Shown piece after piece: positions 1,634 through 16,464 of a DNA stretch of 34,166 nucleotides. The DNA is taken from NCBI GenBank assembly GCA_026415015.1, contig JAOAHW010000209.1, forward strand, positions 1 to 34,166, written 5' to 3'. Under the pieces are notes generated by a model, which worked only from the letters and a program-made list of their open reading frames with translations, was not told where the DNA came from and did not search any database. The translations under genes were made by a program, and so were the position numbers. Source of the stretch: Syntrophorhabdaceae bacterium. Its GTDB lineage: Bacteria; Desulfobacterota; Syntrophorhabdia; Syntrophorhabdales; Syntrophorhabdaceae. Numbering within the stretch: the first letter of the stretch is position 1; each line of letters starts with the position of its first letter.

Positions 1634-2542
1634 ATGAACATACTTGAGGCAATAGGCAACACCCCGCTGGTAGAGCTTATGAATATCAACAAGAACCTCA
1701 AGGTCAAGGTCCTGTGCAAACTCGAGGGCTGTAACCCAGGGGGGTCAATAAAGGACCGTCCAGCCCTTTATATGATCCAGAAGGCAGAGGAGAGGGGAGA
1801 GCTTACAAAAGACAAGATAATACTGGAGCCCACATCAGGCAACACAGGGATTGCCATAGCCATGATAGGGGCTGCAAAGGGTTATAAGGTTGATCTGTGC
1901 ATGCCTGAGTGCGTAAGCACAGAGAGGAGGCTTATCCTCGAAGGTCTTGGCTCAAATGTATTTCTTACACCTGCAAAAGAGAATATAGATGGCGCTATAA
2001 AAAGGGCGCATAGGCTTCTGGAGGAGGAACCGGATAAATACTATATGCCCAATCAGTATGAGAATAAAGACAATGTCCTTGCCCACTTTGAGACCACAGG
2101 CCCTGAGATATACAGACAGACAAAGGGTGAGATAGATTATTTTGTGGCAGGCATGGGGACCACAGGGACACTCATGGGCACAGGGGCTTATCTGAAATCT
2201 GTAAAACCTGATGTCAAGATAGTAGGTGTTGAACCTGTAATGGGCCATACAATCCAGGGTCTCAAAAACATGACAGAATCTATGGTGCCTAAGATATTTG
2301 ACCCCTCCCTCCTTGATGAGAGGCATATGGTTGAGGATGGTGAGGCCTTTGAGGCCACAAGGCTCCTTGCCCAGCACGAGGGTATATTTGTAGGTACATC
2401 AAGTGGTGCTGCAGTGGCTATAGCCTTAAAGATTGCAAATAAAATAGACCATGGAAATATTGTGGTTATACTACCGGATAGGGGTGACCGTTACTTAAGC
2501 ACCATGCAGTTTAGGTCCATATGCGCTAAGTGTCCTCCATAA
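1634..2542 (+). CDS. cysK: Cysteine synthase family PLP enzyme (CysK/CysM-like)
   Basis: GNTPLVEL, SIKDRPA (PLP lysine) and TSGNTGIA motifs. ATG 1634 is preceded by GGAGG at 1621-1625, so it is preferred over the GTG 1538 extension. The unusual C-terminal tail ends ...SICAKCPP. Confidence 0.85.
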   Translation: MNILEAIGNTPLVELMNINKNLKVKVLCKLEGCNPGGSIKDRPALYMIQKAEERGELTKDKIILEPTSGNTGIAIAMIGAAKGYKVDLCMPECVSTERRLILEGLGSNVFLTPAKENIDGAIKRAHRLLEEEPDKYYMPNQYENKDNVLAHFETTGPEIYRQTKGEIDYFVAGMGTTGTLMGTGAYLKSVKPDVKIVGVEPVMGHTIQGLKNMTESMVPKIFDPSLLDERHMVEDGEAFEATRLLAQHEGIFVGTSSGAAVAIALKIANKIDHGNIVVILPDRGDRYLSTMQFRSICAKCPP

Positions 2543-2589
2543 ACTTTAATTATGCCACAGGGTAGAAGAACTTTTTCAAATATAACAAA

Positions 2590-3507
2590 TCATGGTCTCG
2601 GATAAAGCCCTGCTGATTTTACTATCTCAGGGATAATCTCCTCCCATCCTATTGCCATTATATGGATTCCACAGACACCCTTTATACCCTTGAGTCTGTC
2701 AATTGTCTCAACACAAATACTTATGCCTTCTTCCGGTGCCTTTTCTTTCGGGGTACCTCTCAGCCTATCTATCAGTTTATCTGGCACATCCATGCCAGGT
2801 ACATTTCTCTTCATATAATTTGCCATACCAACAGATTTTAATGGTGTAATCCCTGCAATGATACTGACCTTTTCATGGACACCAAGACCCCTTACCATCT
2901 CCATCCACCTCTCAAACTTCTCAATATTAAAAATACACTGGGTCTGGCAGAACTGGGCGCCTGCAGCAGCCTTTTTTGCAAGTCTCATGGCCCTTATCTC
3001 AAATGGGTCTGCAAAGGGATTTTCAACGCAACCGATAAATATATCAGGCCTGCCTTTTACCTCCTCTCCGCTTAAAAACCTGCCTTCATCCCTCATATCT
3101 CTTATACATTGGATGAGCTGCAAAGAATCTATATCAAAAACATTTTTTGCGCCTTTGTGGTCACCGAATCTTTGATGGTCACCAGATAGGCAGAGGATAT
3201 TTTTAATACCAAGGGCAGATGCACCAAGGACATCACTCTGTATGGCAATCCTGTTTCTGTCCCTGCACACCATCTGCATGACAGGGTCAATGCCCATGTC
3301 TTTTAAAATAACGCAGGATGCAAAGCTACTCATCCTCACCACAGCGGTCTGGTTATCAGTGACATTCACAGAGTCCACATATCCCTTCAATATCTTGGCT
3401 TTTATCCTTATCATATCAGGGTCTGCACCCCTTGGTGGCCCGCACTCTGCTGTAACTGCAAAGGCACCGGATTGAAGCACCCTTTTTAGATTGCCCTGTG
3501 CCGTCAT
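2590..3507 (-). CDS. metF: Methylenetetrahydrofolate reductase, acetogen/SRB type
   Basis: 305 aa. AVTAECGPPRG, VNVTDN and CLSGDH segments are typical of MetF. It overlaps metV by 4 nt (ATGA). Confidence 0.9.
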   Translation of the reverse strand: MTAQGNLKRVLQSGAFAVTAECGPPRGADPDMIRIKAKILKGYVDSVNVTDNQTAVVRMSSFASCVILKDMGIDPVMQMVCRDRNRIAIQSDVLGASALGIKNILCLSGDHQRFGDHKGAKNVFDIDSLQLIQCIRDMRDEGRFLSGEEVKGRPDIFIGCVENPFADPFEIRAMRLAKKAAAGAQFCQTQCIFNIEKFERWMEMVRGLGVHEKVSIIAGITPLKSVGMANYMKRNVPGMDVPDKLIDRLRGTPKEKAPEEGISICVETIDRLKGIKGVCGIHIMAIGWEEIIPEIVKSAGLYPRP

Positions 3508-4172
3508 ATCTCCATGTCCTCTCTTTGCCTCTTCCTTGGCCCTCCATCCCTTGCTGTTGACCAGTCTTTTGGAGACACTATCTCCATGTACATATCCATC
3601 ATGCCCTTCTTCTTATACCTTTCGATTATAAGATGCCAGGCGCATGGCGTGTCTTTATCTATCTCGCACCTGCCCTCTGAAGACCCGCCGCAAGGTCCAT
3701 TAAAGATACTCTTTGCGCAACGGGTCACTGGGCATATACCCATGGTCCTATGAAGGACACAGTTTCCGCAACCCTGACACCTCTCAGTCCAGAGGCCATG
3801 TCTCTCTGTAACACCCATGAAGGTTGTATTCACACCGGGTAATACAAGGACATCTGTATACCTCTCACCTAAAAACTGGACCCCGCATCCACAGGCAAGG
3901 GAGAGGACAGCATCATAGCCCCCTATGGTATCCTTTAATTCTTCGAGGTATTCAATATCACACTGTCTCTCAATGGTCTTTTCATGGACCTCTGAACTTA
4001 TCCTGTCTTTCGTCCTCCTTAACCTTATCTGTGATGCCAGGATAGCCACCTCCTTTGCACCCCCTACAGCACACACTGTTACACACTCGTTGCACCCTAA
4101 GACAAGTATATCCCTGTATGGGGCAAGCATACTCATTATCTCATCAAAAGGCTTTCTATCTGCAATTATCAT
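3504..4172 (-). CDS. metV: MetV, MTHFR C-terminal-domain Cys-rich subunit
   Basis: 222 aa. Contains the Cys-rich CQGCGNC...CP...C...NGPCGG...C signature of the MTHFR_C family. Sits directly upstream of metF, as in Moorella. Confidence 0.85.
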   Translation of the reverse strand: MIIADRKPFDEIMSMLAPYRDILVLGCNECVTVCAVGGAKEVAILASQIRLRRTKDRISSEVHEKTIERQCDIEYLEELKDTIGGYDAVLSLACGCGVQFLGERYTDVLVLPGVNTTFMGVTERHGLWTERCQGCGNCVLHRTMGICPVTRCAKSIFNGPCGGSSEGRCEIDKDTPCAWHLIIERYKKKGMMDMYMEIVSPKDWSTARDGGPRKRQREDMEI

Positions 4173-4621
4173 ATTCCACCCCTGCCGCTATCTCTTGTAG
4201 ACTTTATTTTATTCAATTTAAATGGGTTAGGCCCTAAGGATTTTATTCTCTCTGTAAACTCTTTAGCAATCTCTGCAAATCTCAACCCCTCTGCAGAAGA
4301 TACATTATACATAGAGACCCTTTGGCCACCAATCCCTGATTCATCAAGGAGCGTCTTGAGATATTTAACCCTCTTTTTTGCCCTTATATTCCCTGTAAGA
4401 TAATGACAGTCTCCCTCAAGACACCCCACAAGGTATATACCATCTGCACCCCCTTCAAATGCCTTGAGGATATGGATTATATCCACCCTCCCTGTGCATG
4501 GTACCTTTATAATCTTAACACTGGTGGGGTATGAAATCCTCATGGAACCTGCCAGGTCCGCGGCAGTATACCCTCAGTATTCACAGCAATAGGCAATAAT
4601 ATCTGGCTCAAATCTCTCCAT
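4169..4621 (-). CDS. mvhD: MvhD/FlpD-like [2Fe-2S] electron-transfer subunit, probable selenoprotein (UGA at 4576-4574 read as Sec, residue 16)
   Basis: The track ORF (4169-4543) lacks the family N-terminus. The same frame upstream reads ATG(4621) MERFEPDIIAYCCEY-TGA-GYTAADLAGS-MRISYPTSVKIIKVPCTGRV. The TGA sits where homologues have the Cys of CCNWC(S/T)YxGAD. Confidence 0.75.
4526..4573 (-). promoter_or_regulatory. Candidate bacterial SECIS hairpin immediately 3' of the mvhD UGA
   Basis: mRNA reads GGGUAU ACUGCCGCGGACCUGGCAGGU...UC AUACCC. An outer GGGUAU/AUACCC pairing encloses a CUGCC-N8-GGCAG stem-loop that starts about 10 nt after the UGA. Confidence 0.45.
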
Positions 4622-4626
4622 ATTAT

Positions 4627-4689
4627 AATAGACTAAAGACTATAGACCAGAGACTATAGACTAAAGATAATAGACTATAGTCTGGTGTC
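4627..4689 (-). repeat. Tandem heptamer array A (8-9 units; plus strand TA[T/A]AGAC, mRNA sense CUNNAGU) in the hdrL-mvhD intercistronic gap
   Basis: Plus-strand units in register: AATAGAC TAAAGAC TATAGAC CAGAGAC TATAGAC TAAAGAT AATAGAC TATAGTC (TGGTGTC). The array ends 5 nt from the mvhD ATG. It contains the palindrome AGACTATAGTCT and an imperfect 11-bp inverted repeat (4648-4685). Confidence 0.85.
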
Positions 4690-4710
4690 AATAGGCTCTA
4701 AACCCCCTAT

Positions 4711-7700
4711 TTAAGTATTTACAGCAGCAAGGGTCTTTTCAATAATCTGCCTGTCCCTGTAATGCATTACATCTATGGCCTTTGCAGGGCATTCAGCAGC
4801 ACATACCCCGCACCCCTTACATCTATTTATATCTATCTCTGCCTCACCCCTTTCATTTACAAAGGGCACAGAAAAAGGACACACCCTCACGCAGGTAAGG
4901 CAGGCAGCACATCTATCTGCATCCACATATGCCACAATGCCACCTATTGGTATCCTATCCTTTGCAAGTATGGTTATAGCCCTGGCAGCTGCACCTTCTG
5001 CCTGGATGATGGTCTCTTTTATTGTCCTCGGTGAGTGGCACATCCCTGCAAGGTATACACCATCATAGGAAAAGTCTATTGGTTTGAGTTTCATATGTGC
5101 CTCAAGGAAAAAACCCTCAGGGGTTCTCGGTAGCCTGAAGATATTGGCAATATCCTTGTTATCCCTGGGTATTATGGCACAGCTTAACCCAACAATATCT
5201 GCCTCCATCTCTATATCCTCTGACAATACCATATCATGACAGGTTACATGGGCATGATCCCCTCTTGGTTCTACTATAGGTGGCATGGAGGCATCAAACC
5301 TTATAAATCCTATCCCCATCTGCCTTGCCATACGGTAATATCTCTCATAAAACCCATAGGTCATCATGTCCCTATAGAGGATTATAATATCTGAATCAGG
5401 TGCAATCTCCTTAAGCCTTATTGCATTTTTTATAGCTATAAGACAGCATATCCTGCTACAGTATGGCCTTTGTTTATCCCTTGAGCCTACACACTGTATC
5501 ATCACACATCTTTTATATCCTGTGACCCTGTTTTCCATTATTGCAGACTCAAGCTCCATCTGGGTCATGATATATTTTTTTTCTCCGTATCCATAGAGGC
5601 CATAGGGCTTAATCTCTTCTCCTCCTGTAGCTATAATAGTAGCACCATGCCTTATTATCTCTTTGTGGTTGTCACTGAGCCTTGTTATCTCGGTCTCAAA
5701 GTTTCCCTTAAAACCTGAATGCCCTTTGATGGTTGAGCCTGTCATAACCTCAATATGAGGGTGATGAAGCACCCTCTCTTTTAAATTTCGGAAAAATGCC
5801 TGTATATCTATCTTATCTAATGTAGTGCTAATATACCTGAGGTTTCCTCCTAACTCATCCTCTTTTTCTATCAAAAATACCTTAAAACCCTGGTCTGCAA
5901 GATTTAGAGAAGATGTCATGCCTGCCAGACCACCGCCCACAACAAGGCAGGACCTCTCTACAGTGACTGACTTTTCTGTCAATGGCTCTATTTTAGCTGC
6001 ATTGGCAACTGCCATCCTCACAAGGGCCTTTGCCTTTTCTGTGGCATCTTCTTTTTCATGCATATGGACCCATGAGCACTGGTCTCTTATATTTGCCATC
6101 TCAAAGAGATATTTATTGAGCCCTGCATCCCTTATGAGAGACCTGAATAAAGGTTCATGGGTCCTTGTGGAACACGATGCCACAACCACCCTGTTGAGGT
6201 TATATTCCTCTATGGTCTTTTTTATCTTCTCCTGGGTATCCTGGGAGCATGTAAAGAGATTCTCCTGGGCAACAACAACGCCTGGTAGACCCTCTGCATA
6301 TGTCTTAACCCCAGGGACATCTACTATGCCACCTATATTTACCCCGCAGTTGCATATAAATACCCCTATCCTTGGTTCCTCATTGACCACATCTTTCTCA
6401 TTTGGAGGTGTCTTTATCTCAATATCAACCCATCTGGCCTCTTTTAATGGCCTTGAGGCCTCACACGCAACACCACTACCATCTATTACAGTCTCTGTTA
6501 TATCCTTTGGTGACCCGCAGGCACCGCACAGATATATACCCTCTTTTAATGTGGCAAGGGGTCTTTGGGGGTGGGTCTCTATAAACCCGTAACTATTTAA
6601 TTTCACATCTAAAATATCTGCAAGTTGCTTGAGCTGTTTTGATGGCCTTAGTCCTATAGACAGTACAACAAGTTCAAAATGCTCTGTCTTGTATGATCCT
6701 GCCTCGTCAATAAAACATATCTCCAGGTCCTTTGTCTCAGGATCCTCTATAACCCTTGATACAAGGGATTTTATATATCTCACCCCATATTTGTTCCTTG
6801 CCTGCTCAAAGAGATGTTCATATCCCTTTCCAAAGGTCCTTATATCCATATAGAAGATTGTGGGCTCTATATCATGCTGGTGTTCCTTAGATATTATTGC
6901 CTCTTCTGTGGCATACATACAGCATACTGATGAACAGTATTCATTTATCTTGCACCTGCTACCTACACATTGGATAAAGGCGATTTTTTTTGGAATCTTT
7001 CCATCAGAGGGTCTCATGATCTTGCTCTCTGTAGGGCCTGTGGCAGATAGGACCCTCTCGTATTCTATACTTGTAAGGACATTCCTGCATATACCATAAC
7101 CGTATTCTTTGAGTTCTCGCGGATTAAATTCATCATAACCAGTGGATATTATGATACTGCCTACATTGACCTTTGTCTCCACAGGTACCTGGCTATAGTC
7201 TATTGCCTCTGGTTTGCATACCTCCTCACATATACCGCATCCCAGACACCTCCGGCAGCTAAGACACCTTCTTGCCTCCTCTACTGCTGATATCTGGGAA
7301 ATACACTGGTTTATCTCGGCAAAGCCAGACCTTTCAGAGATAGGGGTCCTCGGGATAAAGACCCTTGGTTTTTTCTGGACATAAAATGGAGGCTCATCGA
7401 GTATCTTGTCATCCTCTGCAAGTCTGCCTTCCCTCATATCCTTGCCCTCAAGGAATCTTTTTATAGACTCTGCTGCCCTCTTACCCTGGCTTATGGCATC
7501 TATGGCAGTTTTAGGCCCTGTGACAGCATTGCCCCCTGCAAAGACACCCTTTTTAGTTGTCTCAAGGGTAACCCTATCAACCTTAATCCTGCCATCAGAA
7601 AGCCTTTCTATCTCTTTGTAGTCTCTAAGATATGCTGTATCTATTGTCTCGTAGATAACCAGTATCAGATTATCCCCTTGGAGGTACCTGGTCACAGAAC

Positions 7701-9117
7701 CGTCAAATACAGGCTCAAACTCATCTTTCTCATTATAGACCTCAAGACACCTCTGGAGCTCTATACCTGCAAACCTATCTCCTCTGGTATGGATCCTGTA
7801 AGGACCCCAGGAGTTGTATATCTTTATGCCCTCCTCTAATGCCTGGCCTATCTCCCACCTGTGGGCAGGCATATCCTCCCATCTCTCAAGGGCTACAATA
7901 GTCACCTCTTCTGCACCGCATCTTTTTGCAGTCAGGGCCGCATCCATGGCAACATTGCCGCCTCCTAAGATAATAACCCCCTTCCCCAGTTGTATAGCCC
8001 TGCCCAGGTTAACACCCCTCAAAAAACTCAAGGCATCAAGGACACCCTGGGCGTCTTCATTTTCTATACCCAGTCTCCTTCTTCCATGGGCACCTGAGCC
8101 TATAAATGTGGCATCAAAGTTATTGAATATATGATCAAGGGGTATATCTTTGCCAACCCTTGTATTATACCTTACCTCTATGCCAATCTTCTCCAATATA
8201 GACATCTCTCGCTCAAGGACATCCCTGGGCAGTCTATATGCAGGTACACCTACATAAAGCATACCACCGAGTCTATCGTATGCCTCAAATATGGTTACCC
8301 TGAAGCCTTCCTTCCTCAGCTCGTATGCGCATGTTGTACCTGCTGGGCCACCACCTATCACCGCTACCCTCTTTTCCCTTTCCTCTTTTATCTTAGGTAC
8401 AGGTATCTGTCTTTTGCCCAGTTCATAATCAGCCACAAACCTCTTCAAAGCACATATTGCTATTGGCTGGTCAACCTCCTTGCCGCGTAGACATGCCTCT
8501 TCGCACGGATGGGCACATATGCGACCTATAATACCAGGGAACGGTAGCTTTTCCCTTATCAGATCCAGGGCCTCGAGAAACTTCCCCTCCACAATAAGGC
8601 TTATATAGTCCCTTGCATTGAGGTTTATGGGACATGTAAATATACAAGGGGATAGCTGTCTATCTAACATATACGTAGAAGGTATTGCCTGGGGGAAGTT
8701 TATAAATGCCGCGCTCCTTAAAGAAAGGCTCTCATTGTATACATCACCCACCTCAAGGGGGCAGTTTATTCCACATACCCCACAGGATGTGCATCTATCG
8801 TATAAGACCCTCCTTGGCCTCGTCCTCAAGGTAACAGTAAAGTTACCTGCCTCACCCTCTATAGCTACCACCTCAGAGTTCATAAGAAGCTCTATATTTG
8901 GGTCTCTGCCAACCTCCACAAGCTTAGGTGCCATCACACACATAGAGCAGTCATTGGTGGGGAAGACCTTGTCGAGCTGTGCCATATTGCCGCCGATATT
9001 GGGTTTTCTGTCTGCGAGATAGACCTTAAAACCTGCCTCCACAAGGTTTAAAGAGGCCTCCATGCCTCCAATACCACCGCCTATTACAAGGACCTTACCT
9101 ACAACCTTCTTACCCAT
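4711..9117 (-). CDS. hdrA: Giant HdrA-family flavoprotein (HdrL-like): an HdrA-like unit interrupted by a GltD/NfnB-like NAD(P)H module, fused to a second complete HdrA
   Basis: 1468 aa. aa 1-155: VIGGGIGG, NDCSMC, CTSCGVCGINCP. aa ~155-560: CxxxCP...GRICAHPCEEAC, VIGGGPAG, ILGGGNVAMD (glutamate synthase small-chain-like). aa ~610-900: CVGSR...CSSVCC. aa ~915-1468: RIGVFICNCGVNI, VVGGGLAG, CVGSRD...YCSRICC and a C-terminal 2x CxxCxxCxxxCP. SD AAGGTG lies 7 nt upstream. Confidence 0.85.
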   Translation of the reverse strand: MGKKVVGKVLVIGGGIGGMEASLNLVEAGFKVYLADRKPNIGGNMAQLDKVFPTNDCSMCVMAPKLVEVGRDPNIELLMNSEVVAIEGEAGNFTVTLRTRPRRVLYDRCTSCGVCGINCPLEVGDVYNESLSLRSAAFINFPQAIPSTYMLDRQLSPCIFTCPINLNARDYISLIVEGKFLEALDLIREKLPFPGIIGRICAHPCEEACLRGKEVDQPIAICALKRFVADYELGKRQIPVPKIKEEREKRVAVIGGGPAGTTCAYELRKEGFRVTIFEAYDRLGGMLYVGVPAYRLPRDVLEREMSILEKIGIEVRYNTRVGKDIPLDHIFNNFDATFIGSGAHGRRRLGIENEDAQGVLDALSFLRGVNLGRAIQLGKGVIILGGGNVAMDAALTAKRCGAEEVTIVALERWEDMPAHRWEIGQALEEGIKIYNSWGPYRIHTRGDRFAGIELQRCLEVYNEKDEFEPVFDGSVTRYLQGDNLILVIYETIDTAYLRDYKEIERLSDGRIKVDRVTLETTKKGVFAGGNAVTGPKTAIDAISQGKRAAESIKRFLEGKDMREGRLAEDDKILDEPPFYVQKKPRVFIPRTPISERSGFAEINQCISQISAVEEARRCLSCRRCLGCGICEEVCKPEAIDYSQVPVETKVNVGSIIISTGYDEFNPRELKEYGYGICRNVLTSIEYERVLSATGPTESKIMRPSDGKIPKKIAFIQCVGSRCKINEYCSSVCCMYATEEAIISKEHQHDIEPTIFYMDIRTFGKGYEHLFEQARNKYGVRYIKSLVSRVIEDPETKDLEICFIDEAGSYKTEHFELVVLSIGLRPSKQLKQLADILDVKLNSYGFIETHPQRPLATLKEGIYLCGACGSPKDITETVIDGSGVACEASRPLKEARWVDIEIKTPPNEKDVVNEEPRIGVFICNCGVNIGGIVDVPGVKTYAEGLPGVVVAQENLFTCSQDTQEKIKKTIEEYNLNRVVVASCSTRTHEPLFRSLIRDAGLNKYLFEMANIRDQCSWVHMHEKEDATEKAKALVRMAVANAAKIEPLTEKSVTVERSCLVVGGGLAGMTSSLNLADQGFKVFLIEKEDELGGNLRYISTTLDKIDIQAFFRNLKERVLHHPHIEVMTGSTIKGHSGFKGNFETEITRLSDNHKEIIRHGATIIATGGEEIKPYGLYGYGEKKYIMTQMELESAIMENRVTGYKRCVMIQCVGSRDKQRPYCSRICCLIAIKNAIRLKEIAPDSDIIILYRDMMTYGFYERYYRMARQMGIGFIRFDASMPPIVEPRGDHAHVTCHDMVLSEDIEMEADIVGLSCAIIPRDNKDIANIFRLPRTPEGFFLEAHMKLKPIDFSYDGVYLAGMCHSPRTIKETIIQAEGAAARAITILAKDRIPIGGIVAYVDADRCAACLTCVRVCPFSVPFVNERGEAEIDINRCKGCGVCAAECPAKAIDVMHYRDRQIIEKTLAAVNT

Positions 9118-9123
9118 TCTCTG

Positions 9124-9477
9124 TCACCTTCTAAGACAATACACAGGGTCACGGTCATCATAGCCTTTAATTTCAATAAGGTTTCTCCTAATCAGCTCTT
9201 TGATATGATTAAACACTATGGACATCTCCAAATGGAGGGCCGTTGAAATATGGATTACTGTCTTTTCTCCCTCTGCAAGAGTTTTAAGTATCCTTGCCCT
9301 CTCCAATGCCGCCTCAAGGAGGGGGTTAAAGACAAGGTAGAATTGTCTCTCTGTGAACCTCTCTCCATAGACATTCCCGCCTATGAGTCTGTCTTTTTTT
9401 GATAACAGCCTTTCAATCCTTGCTGCACCATCAGGGTCATATATCTTTATAAAGTTTAGCTTATCTGTTATGTCCAT
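9124..9477 (-). CDS. Small hypothetical protein with a probable winged-helix (ArsR/MarR-like) C-terminal half
   Basis: 117 aa. The segment ARILKTLAEGEKTVIHISTALHLEMSIVFNHIKELIRRNLIEIKG has the helix-turn-helix-wing pattern. It is embedded between hdrB and hdrL. I recognise no family. Confidence 0.45.
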   Translation of the reverse strand: MDITDKLNFIKIYDPDGAARIERLLSKKDRLIGGNVYGERFTERQFYLVFNPLLEAALERARILKTLAEGEKTVIHISTALHLEMSIVFNHIKELIRRNLIEIKGYDDRDPVYCLRR

Positions 9478-9502
9478 CTGCCTTATCTATCTTCTTTTAG
9501 CC

Positions 9503-10366
9503 CTAAAGCTTTATCTTTTTGACCTTCGTAAGAAGGTTATCCACAGGTATAATGTGGGATTTACTGCCCCTTATAACACCGCTTATGGCCATCTCCAAAA
9601 CCTCTGTTATAAAAATTACAGGGATAGTTTCCTTTTTTCTACCCATAAGGGGCAATAGATCCAGATTTAACTGACACAATGGGCATGGCGTAACAATGGC
9701 ATCAGCACCTATCCTCAATGCCATATCCATAATCCCTGAAGAATGCCTTAAAGTGGCATCTTTATCTGTTATGGTCTTGCCTGCACCACAGCACTCCATC
9801 TTATATTGCCATGTGAGCACCGATGCCCCTGTAGCTGAGATTATATTATCCATACTCACAGGGTCTTCTGTATCATCAAATGGTCTTATCCTTTGAGACC
9901 TCGTAAGTACACAGCCGTAATAAGGTACAACCGTAATAGATGACAGGTCATATCTTATGCCTCCGGCAACCCTTTCTAAACCCACATGGTCAGTTATGAC
10001 CTCTATAATATTTTTTACCTCTATGGAGCCCAAACAACTCAACGGTGCTATGACATCATTGACCTCATCCATAAGGCTTCTATCAGTCCTCATCTTCTCG
10101 TTTGTAATCCTTAGTCTTTGATAACAGGCAGGGCATGGGCATATAAGGTGATAACCCTCTGCCTCGGCTATGGCAAGGTTTCTTGCTGGAAGGCTATGGC
10201 AGAGGAGGTCGTCTAATGCAATGGCAGCAGATGCACCGCAGCATGACCAGTCATCTATCTCTTTTAAATCAATGTCATAAAATGAGAGGACATCTTTGAT
10301 GGATGCCTCATAAAAGCTACTGGATGTCTTAAGAGAACAGCCTGGATAATATGAAAGCACAAACAT
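9503..10366 (-). CDS. hdrB: Heterodisulfide reductase subunit B-like (two CCG domains)
   Basis: 287 aa. YYPGCSL...WSCCGA...PCPACY, then YYGCVL...MECCGAG...PCPLCQ, which are duplicated CCG-domain cysteine motifs. Confidence 0.88.
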   Translation of the reverse strand: MFVLSYYPGCSLKTSSSFYEASIKDVLSFYDIDLKEIDDWSCCGASAAIALDDLLCHSLPARNLAIAEAEGYHLICPCPACYQRLRITNEKMRTDRSLMDEVNDVIAPLSCLGSIEVKNIIEVITDHVGLERVAGGIRYDLSSITVVPYYGCVLTRSQRIRPFDDTEDPVSMDNIISATGASVLTWQYKMECCGAGKTITDKDATLRHSSGIMDMALRIGADAIVTPCPLCQLNLDLLPLMGRKKETIPVIFITEVLEMAISGVIRGSKSHIIPVDNLLTKVKKIKL

Positions 10367-10369
10367 GAT

Positions 10370-10417
10370 GGCAGACTAAAGACTGTAGACTAAAGACTGT
10401 AGACAGATTATAAAGTC
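10370..10417 (-). repeat. Tandem heptamer array B (same motif family as array A) in the hdrC-hdrB gap
   Basis: Plus-strand units: GGCAGAC TAAAGAC TGTAGAC TAAAGAC TGTAGAC, then a degenerate unit and TAAAGTC. The array ends 3 nt from the hdrB ATG (10366). Confidence 0.85.
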
Positions 10418-10469
10418 TTGTTTTTTAGCCTGTTCTTTCAAATTAGACCCTCTATCATATGCCTCATTT

Positions 10470-10991
10470 TCATCTTCTTTTTATCCTTTCAAAGACCTCT
10501 TTGATATGTCTTTTATCCTTTACTCTATGGGGTAAGATACCCATCCTGCCTTTAAGCATCATGGTAATACCCATCTTTGCATCTTTGAAAAATTCCTTTT
10601 TTTGTAACTTGTAGTTGAGGATAGTGCCCAGCTCATACAATCTACCGTGGTGTCTTATGCTTTCAAGAAAGAGCCTATCAAACCCCCAGATACGGTCATC
10701 TGCTGTTACTCCTTCTTCTGATGCCACCTTTCTTAATGTCTCAAAAACACGGGCCACATCAATGTCATTAGGACAGCGGATACTGCATGTATTACACATA
10801 AGGCATTCCCATAATCCCTTTGAACTAAGCACCTTTTCCCTCTCCCCTAATTGGATATATCTCATAATCCTATGGGGATATATATCCATCCTCTCTGCCA
10901 CAGGACAGCCATTAGTGCATCTGTAACACTGGAAACAGGCAGATATCTGCTCTCTTGACCTCACTGTTATCTCTTTTAAAAAATTTGTCAT
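10470..10991 (-). CDS. hdrC: Heterodisulfide reductase subunit C-like (2x[4Fe-4S])
   Basis: 173 aa. CFQCYRCTNGCP and CLMCNTCSIRCP motifs with HdrC-typical spacing. Confidence 0.85.
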   Translation of the reverse strand: MTNFLKEITVRSREQISACFQCYRCTNGCPVAERMDIYPHRIMRYIQLGEREKVLSSKGLWECLMCNTCSIRCPNDIDVARVFETLRKVASEEGVTADDRIWGFDRLFLESIRHHGRLYELGTILNYKLQKKEFFKDAKMGITMMLKGRMGILPHRVKDKRHIKEVFERIKRR

Positions 10992-11021
10992 TTAAATGAA
11001 AACCTTTGTCTTTCTTTGAAG

Positions 11022-12929
11022 TTATTTTTGAAAAACCAATATATCTTCTATACCAATTTTTCCTTTATCAGCTTTTGAAAGACCATGTTCAATAACATCA
11101 ACTAATTTAAAACCTGCCATTTTTCCTAAATCGCTTAAAATAGCAGAGGTCTCTATTAATTCCTCTTTTCCATCGACGGCCCACATATGATATTTACTTA
11201 TAACCATCAAGTAATACTTATTTTTTTTCAAAACCCTATAACACTCTTCAAAGGAGAGTTTCATCATTTTTAAATAATTTTCAACTATATTTGATTTATA
11301 TTGCCTTCGTGATTTTTTTAATAAATTTATAAGTTCCAAACTTGAATTAGGGAGTTCAATAGAAAGATATTTGTCACAAACAAACAGTGGCAACTGTTCG
11401 TATGTGGTTTCTTCTCTATGTTTTGATTCATAAAATTTTTTTGTTGATTCCCATTTCAGATCTTCGTCTAAACCAAGGATAAGGATAGGTATCTTATTAT
11501 TTCCTATATAATCTAATGCATCGAAATAGGGTGGTGAGGTAAGGATACCATCTATAGAACCGTTCTTAATCATATACATATTTGTAGAATCACCCTTTAT
11601 TATATTTACTTTTGCACTACTAAAGTCCACTTTTAATATATCTGCCATTATTTTTGTAGCATACAAAATCAGATACCTATCTTCTACATATGATTTAAAG
11701 GAATTAATTATATCCCATGTTCTACTCTTTTCTGAAAATTCTACTATCTGTTGACTCAACAAAATCAATAAAAAATCCCTTATATCTTCATCTTTAATAA
11801 CTTCTATTTCTTTAAGCAAATTGGTTATTTTGGCAAGGTGAGGTTCAATCTTCCCATAAGCGCTTGAACCATTTGTATTTGATTTTATTTTATCCTTCAG
11901 TCTTATTAATTCATTTTTATTACTATCTGTTGAAAACCCTCTGTCTATAGACTCAAAAATCCTAATAATCTCTTCTCTTAATCTTTCTGTATTAATTCCA
12001 AGATTACACTTTACTTGCGCAATCATCTTTCCTATGCTTAAAATCTCAATACCTATTGAATTTATCCCCATAGTTGGCGCATCTGCAATAAAAGCCCCTG
12101 AACCCATGAAGGGGTCTAATATAACATCCCCTGAATTAACCCTGAGCAAGTTAATCAAGGCTCTTGAAATTCTTGGATCTCCTTTTCCTTTATATTTATG
12201 TAAGTAATGGAGAAAAGGCTTGCGTAGGTCAGTGGATGCCCAGTCTACAAAATCTCCTATATTATTCTTACCTAACCCAAAATGGGGGGACCGATAATGC
12301 CCTGCTTTAAGATGGTCAATTAATTCATTAATACCACTAAAAATACCCTTTTCTTTTTCTGAGAAATAAGACCTCCAGTTTTCATTGTTCTTTGGGCGAA
12401 AAACCGCAGCCGGAAGTTTTTTTACCTCTGTAGCGTATTCAAAAAAGGTATGGAATGGTAAAAATCGAATACACACAAGTTTTGTATCCTCTTTGGGTAT
12501 ATTTTTCAAAAAAATCTGGGTATAAGGATTAAAATCTATCTTATCTCCATTGATTTCTTTATTTGTAATTGCCAACCCTAATTTTTTGAGGAAAGATTTT
12601 ATCTCTGCAGTATTTTTTTGGATAAAGATTACATATATCTCTCTAAAAAAAGTGACCCTTTTGATAATGCTGACTATATCAATGGGCTGAATATTGGCTA
12701 AATATGCCTGGCCTTCACCTAAATATACCAATCTATTCATTAAATGTATTACTTCTTCATCAAGTAATGAAAATGGTATTTCTCTCATAAGAAAAGCAAT
12801 GGTCTTAACAAATCTGGTTTTAGTATTTAAAAGAGCATCTATTTCTCTCTGAGCAAAAAAGACTTCATCAGGATCCCTCAAATCAAATTTAATCTTTGCC
12901 AGAATTGTTACGTTGAGATTGTAAGACAT
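11022..12929 (-). CDS. Amino (N4-C or N6-A) DNA methyltransferase, atypical architecture
   Basis: 635 aa. Motif I VILDPFMGSGAF (aa 270-280, nt 12096-12116), motif II-like IGIEI, motif III-like IIKGDS, motif IV TSPPYFD (aa 464-470, nt 11526-11537). An RVLKKNKYYLMV segment lies downstream. The gene is AT-rich and sits next to a nuclease gene. Confidence 0.75.
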   Translation of the reverse strand: MSYNLNVTILAKIKFDLRDPDEVFFAQREIDALLNTKTRFVKTIAFLMREIPFSLLDEEVIHLMNRLVYLGEGQAYLANIQPIDIVSIIKRVTFFREIYVIFIQKNTAEIKSFLKKLGLAITNKEINGDKIDFNPYTQIFLKNIPKEDTKLVCIRFLPFHTFFEYATEVKKLPAAVFRPKNNENWRSYFSEKEKGIFSGINELIDHLKAGHYRSPHFGLGKNNIGDFVDWASTDLRKPFLHYLHKYKGKGDPRISRALINLLRVNSGDVILDPFMGSGAFIADAPTMGINSIGIEILSIGKMIAQVKCNLGINTERLREEIIRIFESIDRGFSTDSNKNELIRLKDKIKSNTNGSSAYGKIEPHLAKITNLLKEIEVIKDEDIRDFLLILLSQQIVEFSEKSRTWDIINSFKSYVEDRYLILYATKIMADILKVDFSSAKVNIIKGDSTNMYMIKNGSIDGILTSPPYFDALDYIGNNKIPILILGLDEDLKWESTKKFYESKHREETTYEQLPLFVCDKYLSIELPNSSLELINLLKKSRRQYKSNIVENYLKMMKLSFEECYRVLKKNKYYLMVISKYHMWAVDGKEELIETSAILSDLGKMAGFKLVDVIEHGLSKADKGKIGIEDILVFQK

Positions 12930-13019
12930 CTTATCACCTGTTATTCAATCAACTTTAAATAATTCACAAGGTTTAATCTTAAATTGAAGTTTTGTAGGGT
13001 CAGGGGTTCCTCCCTTCCT

Positions 13020-13775
13020 CTACATAGTAATTCTACCTATATATAGACTTCCTTTTGGTGATATCTTTACTTCACCTATCCCAAAAAAGTTCATAACTGT
13101 ATTAATATCCTTCAAAATCCACGTGGTAGTGAAATCATCTTTATTATATCTTGTGATAAGCATCCAGTTTGCAGAAAAACCACCTCTTCCTTTTAATATA
13201 TCTGATACCACAAGTATTTTATTTTTTTCAAAGAAGGCTATTACTTTATTTTTTAAACCCTCAGGTAATTCATCAATAAAAACTCTTCTATTGTCTCTCA
13301 AAGTAATATTTTTAAACATGTGAGAATGAACATTAGGATTTATCTCGCCTGTAAAAAGTTTAAGGGCAAAGCTTACATCTTCGTCAAATCTCCATATTTC
13401 TTTATATGTATCGACCCATCTTTTATCTACCTGATTATAATCTGCATCAGAATTTGCTTTTTTTAGTGAGATATTTTCAACCTTTATGATTCCAGCAAGC
13501 CTTACTGTAATCCTTATCTGGGCATCTGCCTTTTTGAACTTCATGAGATCTTCAAAGTCTTCTTCTAAACCTAAATTTATAACATCCTCTTTTTTCATTC
13601 TTGAAGGTATATGAATAGCCTCCACAGCATCTATCTTCCCTAAATTATAGCCCATAATCTTTAACCATAACTGTGCCTCTCTATCTTCTTTCCAATTATT
13701 GAACTTCCCACAAACTATCCTCTCATTAGCAAATCCACCCTTTGCTGTAGTAGAACCAATCTCAAAAGAAGCCAT
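13020..13775 (-). CDS. Type II restriction endonuclease, HinP1I/MspI-like (from recollection of those sequences, not a search)
   Basis: Start preferred at ATG 13775 (MASFEIGSTTAKGGFANE...NNWKEDREAQLWL). Putative catalytic segment is KKADAQIRITV...VENISLKK (D...x-K pattern). It lies 90 nt upstream of the methyltransferase and is AT-rich. Confidence 0.6.
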   Translation of the reverse strand: MASFEIGSTTAKGGFANERIVCGKFNNWKEDREAQLWLKIMGYNLGKIDAVEAIHIPSRMKKEDVINLGLEEDFEDLMKFKKADAQIRITVRLAGIIKVENISLKKANSDADYNQVDKRWVDTYKEIWRFDEDVSFALKLFTGEINPNVHSHMFKNITLRDNRRVFIDELPEGLKNKVIAFFEKNKILVVSDILKGRGGFSANWMLITRYNKDDFTTTWILKDINTVMNFFGIGEVKISPKGSLYIGRITM

Positions 13776-13777
13776 CC

Positions 13778-14518
13778 CTACATCAGCCCTCTCTCCTTCA
13801 GGCTGCAATAGGCATCTTTTTCAGGCATAATAATTTTACTCATTGTGCTTTTTGCAGTGTCTCTTCCTACTATTACATGGTCGAGGACCTCTATACCAAG
13901 GAGCCTGCCTGCATCTATCAAACGCCTTGTGATATTTATATCATCCTGAGATGGTTCAGGGTCACCTGAAGGGTGGTTGTGGGCAACTATTACAGATGAG
14001 GCGCATCGGGATATGGCCTCCTTGAAGACCTCCCGGGGATGGACAAGGCTTGCATTGAGTGTGCCTATGGAGATAGGGGTGATAGCCAGTACCTTATTAC
14101 GGGTATTCAGCGTAACAAGTACAAAGTGTTCCTTTTTTTTGTCCTTGATCTCGTGTCTTATAAGGTCTGCTACTGCCTTTGGATTGGTTATCTCAATATC
14201 ATTTATAGGATTATCTATTTCTATCTCTTTTCTTTTTGCAAGCTCAAAGCATGCCTTTAGCTGAATAGCCTTTGCTAAACCTATCCCCTTTATCTTTGAT
14301 AGCTCCTCGATGGTTGCCTCGCTGATTGCCTTTACACTACCAAAATTTGAAATGAGCTCCTGGGCAATCGTCATAACAGACCTTCCAGCAACACCCCTGC
14401 CTATGATTACTGTTAGAAGTTCCTGTATAGACAATGCCTCTGGGCCCAATCTCTGAAGCCTTTCACGGGGTCTCTCTGACCTGGGCATGTCAAGGACAGT
14501 ATAAGATTTATTTTTCAT
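13778..14518 (-). CDS. radC: RadC-like JAB-domain protein (UPF0758)
   Basis: 246 aa. HhH segment IKGIGLAKAIQLKA and JAMM motif HNHPSGDPEPSQDD. C-terminus is ...SLKERGLM. Confidence 0.9.
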   Translation of the reverse strand: MKNKSYTVLDMPRSERPRERLQRLGPEALSIQELLTVIIGRGVAGRSVMTIAQELISNFGSVKAISEATIEELSKIKGIGLAKAIQLKACFELAKRKEIEIDNPINDIEITNPKAVADLIRHEIKDKKKEHFVLVTLNTRNKVLAITPISIGTLNASLVHPREVFKEAISRCASSVIVAHNHPSGDPEPSQDDINITRRLIDAGRLLGIEVLDHVIVGRDTAKSTMSKIIMPEKDAYCSLKERGLM

Positions 14519-14563: not shown

Positions 14564-15718
14564 TTATTTAATCTCTTTTTTTATGGTGTCATATAGTGTT
14601 CTATATGGGATATTCATCTCCTCGGCAAGCCTCTTTACATCGTCGAATTCAATATGGATTTTTATATAATCCCCCTTTGAGTTGCTACCATATTTTACCC
14701 GAACAGGGCCAAATGATGTCTCTATCTTCTTTATCTCCCTTTTCAAGACCTCTCTTGAATCCCTCCTAAGCCTTATCCCAAAGGTGGTTGTCTCTGTAAA
14801 TATGGCATCCTTTATGTTTTCGAGGTGTTCGTCTCTTGCTATCACAGATAGTCTTATACCGAGCCTGCCTTTTTTCATATACACAGGAAAAAACAGACAG
14901 TCAATAGCGCCTGCCTCCCTTATCCTATCTGACACAGCACCTATATACTCCATATCCATATCATCTATATCTGTCTCTATAACCCAGACATCATCTCCTT
15001 GATGGATGTCATTAGATTCGCCTATGAATATCCTCAATATATCAGGTCTTGATGCCTTGTAAGTCCCTGCCCCGTAACCTGTTTTTTCTATAGACATGGA
15101 GGGTGGGGTATTTTTTCCCTTTACAAAGTGTTTCACGATAGCAGCACCTGTGGGTGTTGTAAGTTCTAAGGCCTCGTCGTAAAAAACCAGCTTCATACCT
15201 GATAAGATCTCAAGGGTAACAGGTGGTGGATTCGGTATAATGCCGTGGGATGTATTTATAGTGCCCCTGCCACAGGGGACTGGGCCACAGTATACCCTGT
15301 CTATACCCATATAGTTTATGCCTGCTGCAACACCTATGATGTCGATGAGTGTGTCTATGTTTGAGAGTTCATGGAAATGGAGCTCATCCTTTGATATACC
15401 GTGAATCTTTGATTCTGCATCCACAATAATATGGAGTATAGCCCTTGCATCTTCCTTTATCCCCTCGTCTAAATCTATATCTTCAATTACCTTCTCCATC
15501 TCCTGTATCGTGAGGTGGATATGGGACTGCTCTATATTCAGGTGCAGGCCCTCTATAATACCATGGGTTATCTTTTCAGGGGTTATCTCAGGCAAAGGAT
15601 AGGGCATTTTTTTTAGTGTCTTTATGAGTTCATCAAAGGGATAACCTGCATGGATGAGGGCAGCCAGCATCATATCTCCGCTTATCCCGAATATAGGGTC
15701 TATGTAGATTATCTTCAT
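14564..15718 (-). CDS. larC: LarC, nickel insertion protein for the NPN cofactor (DUF111)
   Basis: 384 aa. The N-terminus MKIIYIDPIFGISGDMMLAALIHAG is typical of LarC. It is a single uninterrupted ORF. Confidence 0.85.
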   Translation of the reverse strand: MKIIYIDPIFGISGDMMLAALIHAGYPFDELIKTLKKMPYPLPEITPEKITHGIIEGLHLNIEQSHIHLTIQEMEKVIEDIDLDEGIKEDARAILHIIVDAESKIHGISKDELHFHELSNIDTLIDIIGVAAGINYMGIDRVYCGPVPCGRGTINTSHGIIPNPPPVTLEILSGMKLVFYDEALELTTPTGAAIVKHFVKGKNTPPSMSIEKTGYGAGTYKASRPDILRIFIGESNDIHQGDDVWVIETDIDDMDMEYIGAVSDRIREAGAIDCLFFPVYMKKGRLGIRLSVIARDEHLENIKDAIFTETTTFGIRLRRDSREVLKREIKKIETSFGPVRVKYGSNSKGDYIKIHIEFDDVKRLAEEMNIPYRTLYDTIKKEIK

Positions 15719-15720
15719 AA

Positions 15721-16464
15721 TTATAGCCGATTTATAAGGGTTGCAAAGTAGGCAGCACCAAAACCATTATCTATATTAAAGACAGAGACAGTAGAGCATG
15801 AATTGAGCATGGCAAATAGTGCTGTCAAGCCACCGAGACTTGCACCATAACCAACACTTGTAGGGACACCTATTACAGGGACGCCAACAATGCCTGCAAT
15901 AACAGATGGCAGTGCACCCTCCATACCTGCCACTGCGATTATCACCCTTGCCTTTTTCAGTGTATCCATATTTCCAAAAAGCCTGTGTATGCCTGCTACG
16001 CCCACATCATAGAGCCTCTCTGTCCTGTTGCCAAAAAACACAGAGGTTATATATGCCTCCTCTGCCACAGGTATATCGCTTGTCCCTGCAGAGACCACAA
16101 GGACAGTCCCCTTACCTGTAATAGTTTTATCTTCTTTTATATAGAGGCACCCTGCCCTCTCATTATATACAGCAGCAGGGAATCTCTTGCACAGGCTTTT
16201 ACCTATTTTATTTTCAAGACGGGTTATCAGGACATCCTGTTTTTTTTCTATCATGGCATCTATAATATCTGTAAGCTCGCCTAAGGTCTTGCCTTTACCG
16301 AATACAACCTCCTGCAGACCCTTGCGTAATGACCTGTGGTAGTCAAGTTTTGTATGATTTAGGTCTTTAAACGGCAAATCTTTTAGCCTCTCAAGGGCCT
16401 CTTCAGGGGATGTAATGCCATCTCTTACTGCTTTTAGGAGGTTTTTTATGTCTGTCTCTTTCAT
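15721..16464 (-). CDS. larB: LarB, nicotinic acid adenine dinucleotide carboxylase/hydrolase (PurE-like)
   Basis: 247 aa. GLQEVVFGKGKT, VVSAGTSDIPVAEEA and VAGMEGALPSV motifs. Confidence 0.85.
   Translation of the reverse strand: MKETDIKNLLKAVRDGITSPEEALERLKDLPFKDLNHTKLDYHRSLRKGLQEVVFGKGKTLGELTDIIDAMIEKKQDVLITRLENKIGKSLCKRFPAAVYNERAGCLYIKEDKTITGKGTVLVVSAGTSDIPVAEEAYITSVFFGNRTERLYDVGVAGIHRLFGNMDTLKKARVIIAVAGMEGALPSVIAGIVGVPVIGVPTSVGYGASLGGLTALFAMLNSCSTVSVFNIDNGFGAAYFATLINRL

Follow-up and report, generated by a model that had tools for sequence, protein, structure and literature searches.

A conserved gene cluster in a Syntrophorhabdaceae genome probably encodes a Moorella-type methylene-tetrahydrofolate reductase with an additional winged-helix protein

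We analysed a stretch of 34,166 nucleotides from a Syntrophorhabdaceae bacterium (assembly GCA_026415015.1, contig JAOAHW010000209.1; the whole stretch is called the window here), in which seven open reading frames (ORFs) run in the same direction on the minus strand at positions 2590-10991. These are hdrC, hdrB, a small ORF for a winged helix-turn-helix (wHTH) protein, hdrA, mvhD, metV and metF. That these are real genes in a conserved operon-like cluster, rather than a chance pattern, is evident from the family match of each product and from the recurrence of the order in many related loci. The cluster probably encodes an Hdr-type methylene-tetrahydrofolate (methylene-THF) reductase, also known as Moorella-type, 'type IV' or '6S', and not a new type of enzyme. 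Of the steps in Wood-Ljungdahl bioenergetics this one is understood least, since the second redox partner of the Hdr-type enzyme is still unknown, and a preliminary description of this DNA was correct in treating the physiological partner as unresolved in the literature. The built-in NAD(P)H module of the large HdrA is already known; the literature on HdrL, MetF, NfnB, GltD, Syntrophorhabdus and Desulfobacterota yielded no description of this cluster in Syntrophorhabdia. We also propose, tentatively and with a little less than even confidence, that the wHTH protein is a detached docking domain, a widespread seventh component of complexes with a GltD-bearing HdrA that would position MvhD relative to the NAD(H) module, and that in this lineage the reductase would work as a syntroph's NADH-linked, confurcating methyl-THF oxidase.

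The coordinates, strand and short spacing of the seven ORFs noted earlier were all present in the sequence, and comparison with Pfam and NCBIfam profiles placed each product in the family expected for it. The mvhD and metV genes, as well as metV and metF, overlap by 4 nt, which suggests translational coupling at these two junctions, and the remaining gaps are 6, 25, 89 (hdrA-mvhD) and 103 nt (hdrC-hdrB). The first gene, hdrC (10470-10991, minus strand, as for all genes of the cluster), encodes a ferredoxin-like protein of 173 amino acids (aa; Pfam Fer4_17/Fer4_8) with two CxxCxxCxxxCP motifs (C19-C29 and C63-C73), and its top NCBIfam hits were HdrC (TIGR03290, under the cut-off of that model) and QmoC. 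HdrB (9503-10366; 287 aa; two Pfam CCG domains, NCBIfam HdrB/SdhE-like) has both CCG motifs complete, C10..C42C43..C76/78/81 and C152..C192C193..C228xxC231, so that the cysteines required for two non-cubane [4Fe-4S] clusters are in place. The wHTH ORF (9124-9477; 117 aa) matched Pfam HTH_5 weakly, with 23.9 bits against a cut-off of 22. It is followed by hdrA (4711-9117), a gene that can also be called hdrL, whose product of 1468 aa and 163.6 kDa was matched by HdrA models in four stretches and by Fer4_20 and Pyr_redox_2 (GltD/NfnB-like). The product of mvhD (4169-4621; 150 aa) matched Pfam FlpD with 166 bits. Directly upstream of metF, metV (3504-4172; 222 aa) encodes a methylene-THF reductase C-terminal domain with an NGPCGG motif and Cys clusters (DUF5981/PF12225, 122 bits), and metF itself (2590-3507; 305 aa) encodes the catalytic subunit of the reductase (PF02219, 144 bits; NCBIfam NF006396 at 1.4e-65). 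A scan of positions 2300-11300 for consensus promoters and terminators gave promoter-like matches no more commonly than shuffled sequences did, and was uninformative on operon structure. A sequence search of the PDB with MetV returned no solved relative; there was no MetFV-Hdr complex among the PDB matches for the large HdrA, MetF not having been used as a query.

A scan of species-representative genomes with the 1468-aa HdrA gave 78 loci, which carry L-numbers here (L079 denotes a separate 5.5-Mb contig). The best match was to an uncultured 'Deltaproteobacteria' metagenome-assembled genome (MAG), at 86% identity and with the same flanks (LarC, RadC and a restriction-modification methylase), and the next matches were to many Syntrophorhabdaceae/Syntrophorhabdus MAGs at 58-67% identity. 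When all window proteins were compared by tblastn, the seven-gene order was found in L001-L011, L013-L018, L025, L028 and L029, while L012 stops before mvhD; L079, for which gene calls were independent, has the same seven genes. A deltaproteobacterial clade (L019, L021, L027 and L072) and a Leptospirales MAG (L024) show the order without the wHTH ORF, and Spirochaetales MAGs have the order metV-metF-hdrC-hdrA-mvhD. In at least 28 loci, from MAGs of Syntrophorhabdia, other Desulfobacterota, Spirochaetota and Leptospirales, MetV/MetF are encoded no more than 3 kb from the large HdrA. In the deltaproteobacterial MAG L019 the cluster is flanked by fhs-folD upstream and RACo-cooC-acsD downstream, and in L021 cooC-acsD lie downstream of metF. 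These neighbours suggest a link between the family and the Wood-Ljungdahl pathway's methyl branch.

The large HdrA was mapped at residue level by phmmer against the HdrA of M. wolfeii (5ODC_A), with which four of its segments align: residues 7-154 with 144-291 of 5ODC_A, 623-838 with 292-510, 913-1085 with 2-174, and 1291-1460 with 471-644. The first part of module I (8656-9117, minus strand; residues 1-154) opens directly at the Rossmann motif for flavin adenine dinucleotide (FAD), GGGIGG, without an N-terminal HdrA domain, and carries NDC57SMC60, the equivalents of Cys194/Cys197, together with the first CxxCxxCxxxCP motif (C109-C119). The second part (6382-7251, minus strand; residues 623-912) contributes the second half of the inserted ferredoxin domain (C624-C634), both halves of which are thus kept in unit I, as well as the cluster motif C717..C733 of the thioredoxin reductase (TrxR) domain, E687 and Glu738. 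Module II (4711-6381, minus strand; residues 913-1468 plus the stop codon) has the N-terminal HdrA domain (C922, C924..), the FAD motif GGGLAG, the pair E1190/K1230, its own TrxR-domain cluster motif and a C-terminal 2x[4Fe-4S] ferredoxin domain, and lacks both the inserted ferredoxin domain and an equivalent of Cys197. As judged from these motifs, two HdrA units with complementary losses are joined in the 164-kDa HdrA as an intramolecular pseudo-dimer.

Residues 155-622 (7252-8655, minus strand) interrupt the inserted ferredoxin domain of unit I, whose two halves they separate. This insert consists of Fer4_20 and Pyr_redox_2 domains and matched the NfnB/GltD chains 9BOV, 9N5U, 8OH5, 4YLF_B and 5JCA_L in the PDB at E = 1e-64 to 1e-111, the values for NfnB-like chains being 1e-74 to 1e-111. 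Both sets of cluster-binding [4Fe-4S] cysteines (C158, C162, C201, C205, C209 and C222) and both dinucleotide motifs of the GxGxxG type, GGGPAG for FAD at residue 255 and GGGNVA for NAD(P)H at 385, are intact, as in NfnB and GltD. In contrast to those proteins, the module is an internal domain and not a subunit, is without an NfnA partner, and has 'ALER' for 'YRR': the YRR that follows strand beta-2 of the NADPH site in NfnB is replaced by IVALER after GGGNVA. At the same position, all Syntrophorhabdia orthologs have ALE(K/R/T/S/N) and the L019 clade has CLES, while YRR is kept in L020, L023, L024, L035, L047, L064, L069, L070 and L073. It is a general rule for Rossmann folds that an acidic residue at this position favours NAD(H). 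Since an acidic residue replaces YRR here, the Rossmann motif of the GltD module is probably of the NADH type.

The gene order follows that of the hdrCBA-mvhD-metVF cluster of Moorella thermoacetica, as had been recognized before, with one extra ORF between hdrB and hdrA. Other shared features are the common direction of the genes, the position of metV ahead of metF with an overlap between them, the two CCG motifs of HdrB and the two [4Fe-4S] motifs of HdrC. In Moorella HdrA, of 162.8 kDa and 1487 aa, a GltD domain interrupts the N-terminal TrxR-like and ferredoxin unit, while the C-terminal HdrA unit (aa 922-1487) resembles methanogen HdrA without the inserted ferredoxin domain (Kremp, Roth and Mueller, PMC9430772). 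The protein has also been described as a fusion of two HdrA units, one of which has lost Cys197 and the other the N-terminal domain (Chadwick et al., PMC9012536). The protein in the window has nearly the same mass, begins its unit II at residue 913 as compared to 922, and likewise holds GltD in unit I. Moorella HdrA oxidises NADH (PMC9430772), and NADH:benzyl viologen and benzyl viologen:methylene-THF activities are cited for the complex (PMC5861303, PMC9430772). There are differences as well. Neither a wHTH protein nor selenocysteine (Sec) in MvhD is mentioned for Moorella (PMC9430772, PMC5861303), whereas both are present here. The Glu/Lys signature of the bifurcating flavin, E356/K409 in methanogen HdrA, is kept in both Moorella units (E696/K750 and E1204/K1246; PMC9430772), while the protein studied here has it complete in unit II (E1190/K1230) and has Glu738 at the Lys position of unit I. 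The signature Lys of unit I is absent from the window, L001-L003 and L006, and kept in most other orthologs (L004, L013, L016-L027). Finally, the genome here is a Syntrophorhabdia-like MAG, whereas Moorella is an acetogenic Firmicute, and the 34-kb window has no Wood-Ljungdahl genes.

Other known systems share parts of this architecture. The Sporomusa ovata HdrCBA-MvhD-MetVF cluster has the same six genes; its HdrA, however, is of 101 kDa, without GltD and with only two flavin sites (PMC9430772), so that the window HdrA is of the Moorella type. HdrL, named in Desulfobacterium autotrophicum in 2009, combines HdrA domains with a GltD-type NAD(P)H-binding domain in one chain and is followed by mvhD, and selenoprotein MvhD and HdrL variants are known in the same organism (PMC2702500). 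The large HdrA-GltD fusion followed by mvhD in the window has the make-up of HdrL as found in D. autotrophicum and Syntrophobacter fumaroxidans, but the loci there are linked with dsrABC, fdh or another hdrABC set, and no metVF is described beside them. HdrA9-11 of the archaeal ANME-1 group carry an NfnB-like insertion of ~500 aa in the inserted ferredoxin domain (PMC9012536). The insertion point and the inserted module are those of the window HdrA; unlike the latter, these proteins are archaeal, are not beside MetF, and are not described in tandem with a second HdrA unit in one chain. Although an exact look-up of the 1468-aa protein found no record, a homolog search returned >5,500 database proteins at E<=1e-100, and the best 120 of these are nearly all 1,450-1,500 aa long. 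The homologs listed are annotated as 'heterodisulfide reductase subunit A-like polyferredoxin' or 'FAD-dependent oxidoreductase', and no isolates of Firmicutes, Moorella included, were among the matches listed from the genome scan and the best 120 homologs. The HdrA-GltD architecture is common.

The mechanically called mvhD ORF (4169-4543) is too short. The real start is the ATG at 4621, and the frame continues through an in-frame TGA at 4574-4576, giving a full MvhD of 150 aa that begins MERFEPDIIAYCCEY-U-GYTAADLAG, with Sec as codon 16 in the context CCEY-U-GY. The UGA codon is kept in ~24 orthologous loci, and Cys is aligned there in L019, L021, L027, L072 and the archaeal MvhD (CNWC). This alignment of the in-frame UGA with Cys in homologs bears out the earlier suggestion that MvhD is a selenoprotein. 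An alignment of 15 sequences revealed a 17-nt block, GCGGACCUGGCAGGUUC (4545-4561, minus strand), 13-29 nt downstream of the UGA, which is invariant in all 15, synonymous sites included; the flanking codons vary, and no other block behaves in this way. Because the synonymous positions are invariant while the flanking codons vary, the block is a candidate for constraint at the RNA level, such as that of a selenocysteine insertion sequence (SECIS) element. A single-sequence fold predicted a hairpin at this block, where no covariation can be read. An Rfam scan of the whole window matched no family, so no curated SECIS element or riboswitch was found.

The wHTH protein lies at the same position across Syntrophorhabdia, with 42-71% identity. 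A loop outside the HTH, GNxYGExxT (N35, Y37, E39 and T42), is invariant and occurs also in fused copies of the domain. The AlphaFold2 model (pLDDT, a per-residue confidence score, of 92.6) is a winged helix, and the nearest solved folds found by Foldseek were those of ArsR/SmtB repressors, with weak scores (E~1e-3, TM-score ~0.47); the NCBIfam ArsR models scored far under their cut-offs on the protein. In a profile search against 1.84 billion representatives, 366 relatives were retrieved (121 at E<=1e-10), and the lengths of the relatives cluster near 115-135 aa and 210-270 aa. Bathyarchaeia, Methanomassiliicoccales and other deltaproteobacterial loci carry the same domain of ~95 residues as a C-terminal fusion to MvhD. 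Domain arrangements read with Pfam on example proteins were FlpD then wHTH (P0130); HdrA with ferredoxin, FlpD, then wHTH (P0143 and P0227); FlpD, wHTH, then HdrA-GltD (P0155); and all of HdrA, FlpD, wHTH and GltD in a single chain of 1,737 aa (P0244). In pairwise BLASTP, the wHTH ORF of the window matched P0130 at 3e-11 and P0244 at 1e-08. A precedent for a docking winged helix comes from a 2026 preprint on class II benzoyl-CoA reductase, in which the wHTH of the MvhD-like adaptor BamF docks on BamI, and Sec19 of BamF, the equivalent of the MvhD Sec, lies near the [2Fe-2S] cluster (bioRxiv 10.64898/2026.04.10.717634). As in BamF, the window has an MvhD-type adaptor with Sec near an N-terminal Cys motif and a wHTH that would be a protein interface beside an NAD(H)-handling module. 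The wHTH here is, however, a separate gene upstream of hdrA (9124-9477, with mvhD at 4169-4621) and not part of one chain, the NAD(H) module is GltD-like and not HydBC/NuoEF-like, and the likeness to the BamF wHTH was drawn from its description and not from its sequence.

Since this domain is found joined to MvhD or HdrA in other loci, and since the BamF wHTH docks on BamI, a docking or accessory role in the Hdr module is more likely for the wHTH protein than one as a free transcription factor. The preliminary description had spoken of an inserted DNA-binding-like ORF; the extra wHTH-like ORF is indeed there, and the fusions of the domain make a part in the complex more likely, although the protein may still bind DNA. 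The protein is not essential to the enzyme type, since the L019 clade is without it and none is mentioned for Moorella (PMC9430772, PMC5861303). A role as a thiol redox carrier, in the manner of a DsrC-like substrate of HdrB, was considered and set aside, as a C-terminal Cys is found only in the window, L001 and L004. In archaeal loci with split genes (Bathyarchaeia and Methanomassiliicoccales; L030-L038, L041, L066 and L067), the order is hdrA-I(GltD), an mvhD-wHTH fusion, hdrA-II, a second mvhD, hdrC and hdrB, with no metVF nearby. These loci imply that the NAD(P)H-HdrA-MvhD-wHTH module is a portable unit joined to different partners. In L008 (7150-7950) and L014 (6112-6792) the wHTH ORF runs far upstream or carries the C-terminal CCG of HdrB in frame, and P0121 has CCG at residues 12-77 and wHTH at 139-252 in the same frame; such long ORFs are either HdrB-wHTH fusions or artefacts of start codons or frameshifts.

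The domain order, the cofactor motifs, the conserved synteny, the Sec/Cys pair and the fusions of the wHTH domain are read from the sequences themselves; by analogy with Mvh-Hdr, NfnAB, BamE and the work on Moorella and Sporomusa, we infer that the products form a complex and how it might operate. MetF would be the flavin- and folate-binding catalytic subunit and MetV its iron-sulfur partner, both of them wired to the HdrA-HdrB-HdrC-MvhD module. NADH would be oxidised, or NAD+ reduced, at the flavin of GltD, and single electrons would pass over the two GltD [4Fe-4S] clusters to the split ferredoxin domain of unit I and on to the flavins of HdrA. The flavin of unit II, with E1190/K1230, is the likely site of bifurcation or confurcation. 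One branch would run through HdrC, or MvhD, to MetV and MetF, and the other to the second partner, possibly a ferredoxin or flavodoxin of low potential or else a disulfide at HdrB, whose site is intact. The Sec beside the [2Fe-2S] site of MvhD probably aids the switch between one- and two-electron transfer, and the 117-aa wHTH protein would most likely serve as the seventh, docking subunit. For an organism living in syntrophy, the direction that makes energetic sense would be the oxidation of methyl-THF, confurcated with a low-potential donor and giving 2 NADH. This is the reverse of the reaction proposed for Moorella (PMC5861303).

Two of the spacers within the cluster hold tandem heptamer arrays, detected with Tandem Repeats Finder. 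One, of ~4 copies of (C/T)AGTCTN (10373-10404, minus strand), lies in the hdrC-hdrB spacer and ends 6 nt before the hdrB ATG; the other, of ~8 copies of TAGTCTN (4628-4684, minus strand), lies in the 89-nt hdrA-mvhD spacer, includes AGACTATAGTCT, a perfect palindrome, and stops 7 nt short of the mvhD ATG. The pattern has 18 matches compared to 3.3 expected, and arrays occur at just these two places in the window. No clear Shine-Dalgarno sequence precedes the start codon after either array, and the array between hdrA and mvhD folds as an RNA hairpin (-28 kcal/mol, z = -2.0).

Several points weigh against the assignment of the locus to the Moorella-type reductase with an NADH-linked HdrA. The equivalence to Moorella HdrA comes from setting the published domain map beside our residue-level map and not from a sequence alignment, the preference for NADH is read from one motif, and unit I has E687 with Glu738 at the signature Lys position, unlike Moorella. 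Neither the 34-kb window nor the 8-kb flanking stretches of the Syntrophorhabdia loci contained acs, cdh, fhs or folD, and the 89-nt and 103-nt spacers with their repeat arrays could part expression units. The locus might be split into two adjacent enzymes, namely an NADH-dependent HdrA(GltD)-HdrBC-MvhD(-wHTH) complex acting on a disulfide, a DsrC-like protein or ferredoxin, and an independent, ferredoxin-dependent MetFV of two subunits, as in Clostridium ljungdahlii. The GltD-bearing HdrA does occur with MvhD, wHTH and HdrBC in the absence of MetVF in the archaeal loci, the hairpin-forming array separates hdrA from mvhD, and MetVF of S. ovata and of C. ljungdahlii, when alone, depends on ferredoxin, the S. 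ovata MetVF not co-purifying with Hdr proteins (PMC9430772). However, the overlap of mvhD with metV would put such a split inside the Hdr module, and the adjacency is kept in the 28 loci of several phyla while the gene order varies. In S. ovata, moreover, pulldowns show physical contacts of HdrA, HdrB and MvhD with MetF and MetV (PMC9430772), and a Wood-Ljungdahl cluster surrounds the whole unit in L019. We regard two separate enzymes as distinctly improbable.

A second alternative concerns the wHTH protein, which could be an autoregulator of the ArsR/MarR type with the arrays before hdrB and mvhD as its operators. This would agree with the HTH_5 match just over the Pfam cut-off, the ArsR/SmtB repressors at the top of the Foldseek matches, a recognition-helix pattern, VFxHxKELxRRxLVEI, like that of ArsR-family helices, the public annotation as a MarR/ArsR regulator, and the restriction of the arrays, palindrome included, to two spacers of the operon within the window. 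Set against it are the invariant residues in a loop outside the HTH, the covalent attachment of the same domain behind MvhD and inside HdrA-MvhD-wHTH-GltD polyproteins, the use of the wHTH as a protein-docking element in BamF (bioRxiv 10.64898/2026.04.10.717634), and the lack of the protein in the L019 clade. The repeat units also differ completely between orthologous loci while the protein is 50-70% identical, and related genomes have arrays of this sort beyond the operon too, which weakens the case for the arrays as a conserved operator. An autoregulator is thus unlikely, though not far-fetched. Far less credible is the view taken in the preliminary description, in which HdrA of the Moorella complex was replaced by a 1468-aa GltD fusion, a pyridine-nucleotide module being newly added. 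The GltD/NfnB-like module is truly present, and earlier reviews list the Moorella subunit just as 'HdrA'. The published Moorella HdrA nevertheless has the same GltD insertion, size and unit boundaries (PMC9430772), so the 1468-aa protein is not a replacement of it. Several thousand homologs share the architecture, and the NfnB-like insertion in ANME-1 HdrA (PMC9012536) and HdrL (PMC2702500) had been noted as well. The accompanying statement that, as far as was known, the variant had not been characterised biochemically is countered by work on Moorella, where the architecture has been studied through the NADH, viologen and methylene-THF activities (PMC5861303, PMC9430772).

The assignment to the Moorella-type reductase extends this architecture to uncultured Desulfobacterota, including Syntrophorhabdia, and to Spirochaetota, in which it is widespread. 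The natural variants could help to dissect the mechanism, as they differ in the Rossmann motif (NADH- versus NADPH-type), in the presence or loss of the signature Lys of unit I, in Sec or Cys in MvhD, and in the wHTH domain, which may be encoded separately, fused or missing. In practice, what counts most is a correction: a GltD-bearing HdrA next to metVF should not be scored as novel by genome annotators or readers.

The spacers of related loci were also inspected. Tandem arrays of 7- or 9-nt units occur in the hdrA-mvhD, mvhD-metV and post-metF spacers of the Syntrophorhabdaceae loci L002, L003, L007, L008, L010, L014, L028 and L029. The units of orthologous arrays differ widely (TAGGACC, GTTCTAC, CGTAAGG, GTTGCG..) and are laid out as long imperfect hairpins, and in L002 and L003 metV-metF is flanked by arrays that are reverse complements of each other. 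Similar tandem arrays are found outside the operon in related genomes. The arrays look like a lineage-wide habit of intergenic repeats, similar in kind to the short tandemly repeated repetitive (STRR) heptamers of cyanobacteria. In L006 (12381-13020) the hdrA-mvhD spacer has grown to 640 nt and contains an apparent small ORF for a GIY-YIG nuclease, recognized by eye, followed by three repeats of ~110 nt.

Upstream of the cluster, 30 nt from hdrC, lies a restriction-modification pair (11022-13808, minus strand) of a 635-aa N6/N4 DNA methylase and a HinP1I-like endonuclease, in a stretch with a G+C fraction of 0.34 as compared to ~0.44. The methylase is at the same place in L001, and the pair is absent from the Syntrophorhabdaceae loci. 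The pair is probably an inserted island that parts the cluster from its original upstream region. Further upstream, the region 14564-16464 (minus strand) holds LarC-type (Ni_insertion) and LarB-type (AIR carboxylase-like) genes of the nickel-pincer cofactor, after which comes a housekeeping block of YraN, RNase HII, L19, TrmD, RimM and Ffh. In L079, Pfam confirmed a GIY-YIG gene at 5777-6097, upstream of the cluster.

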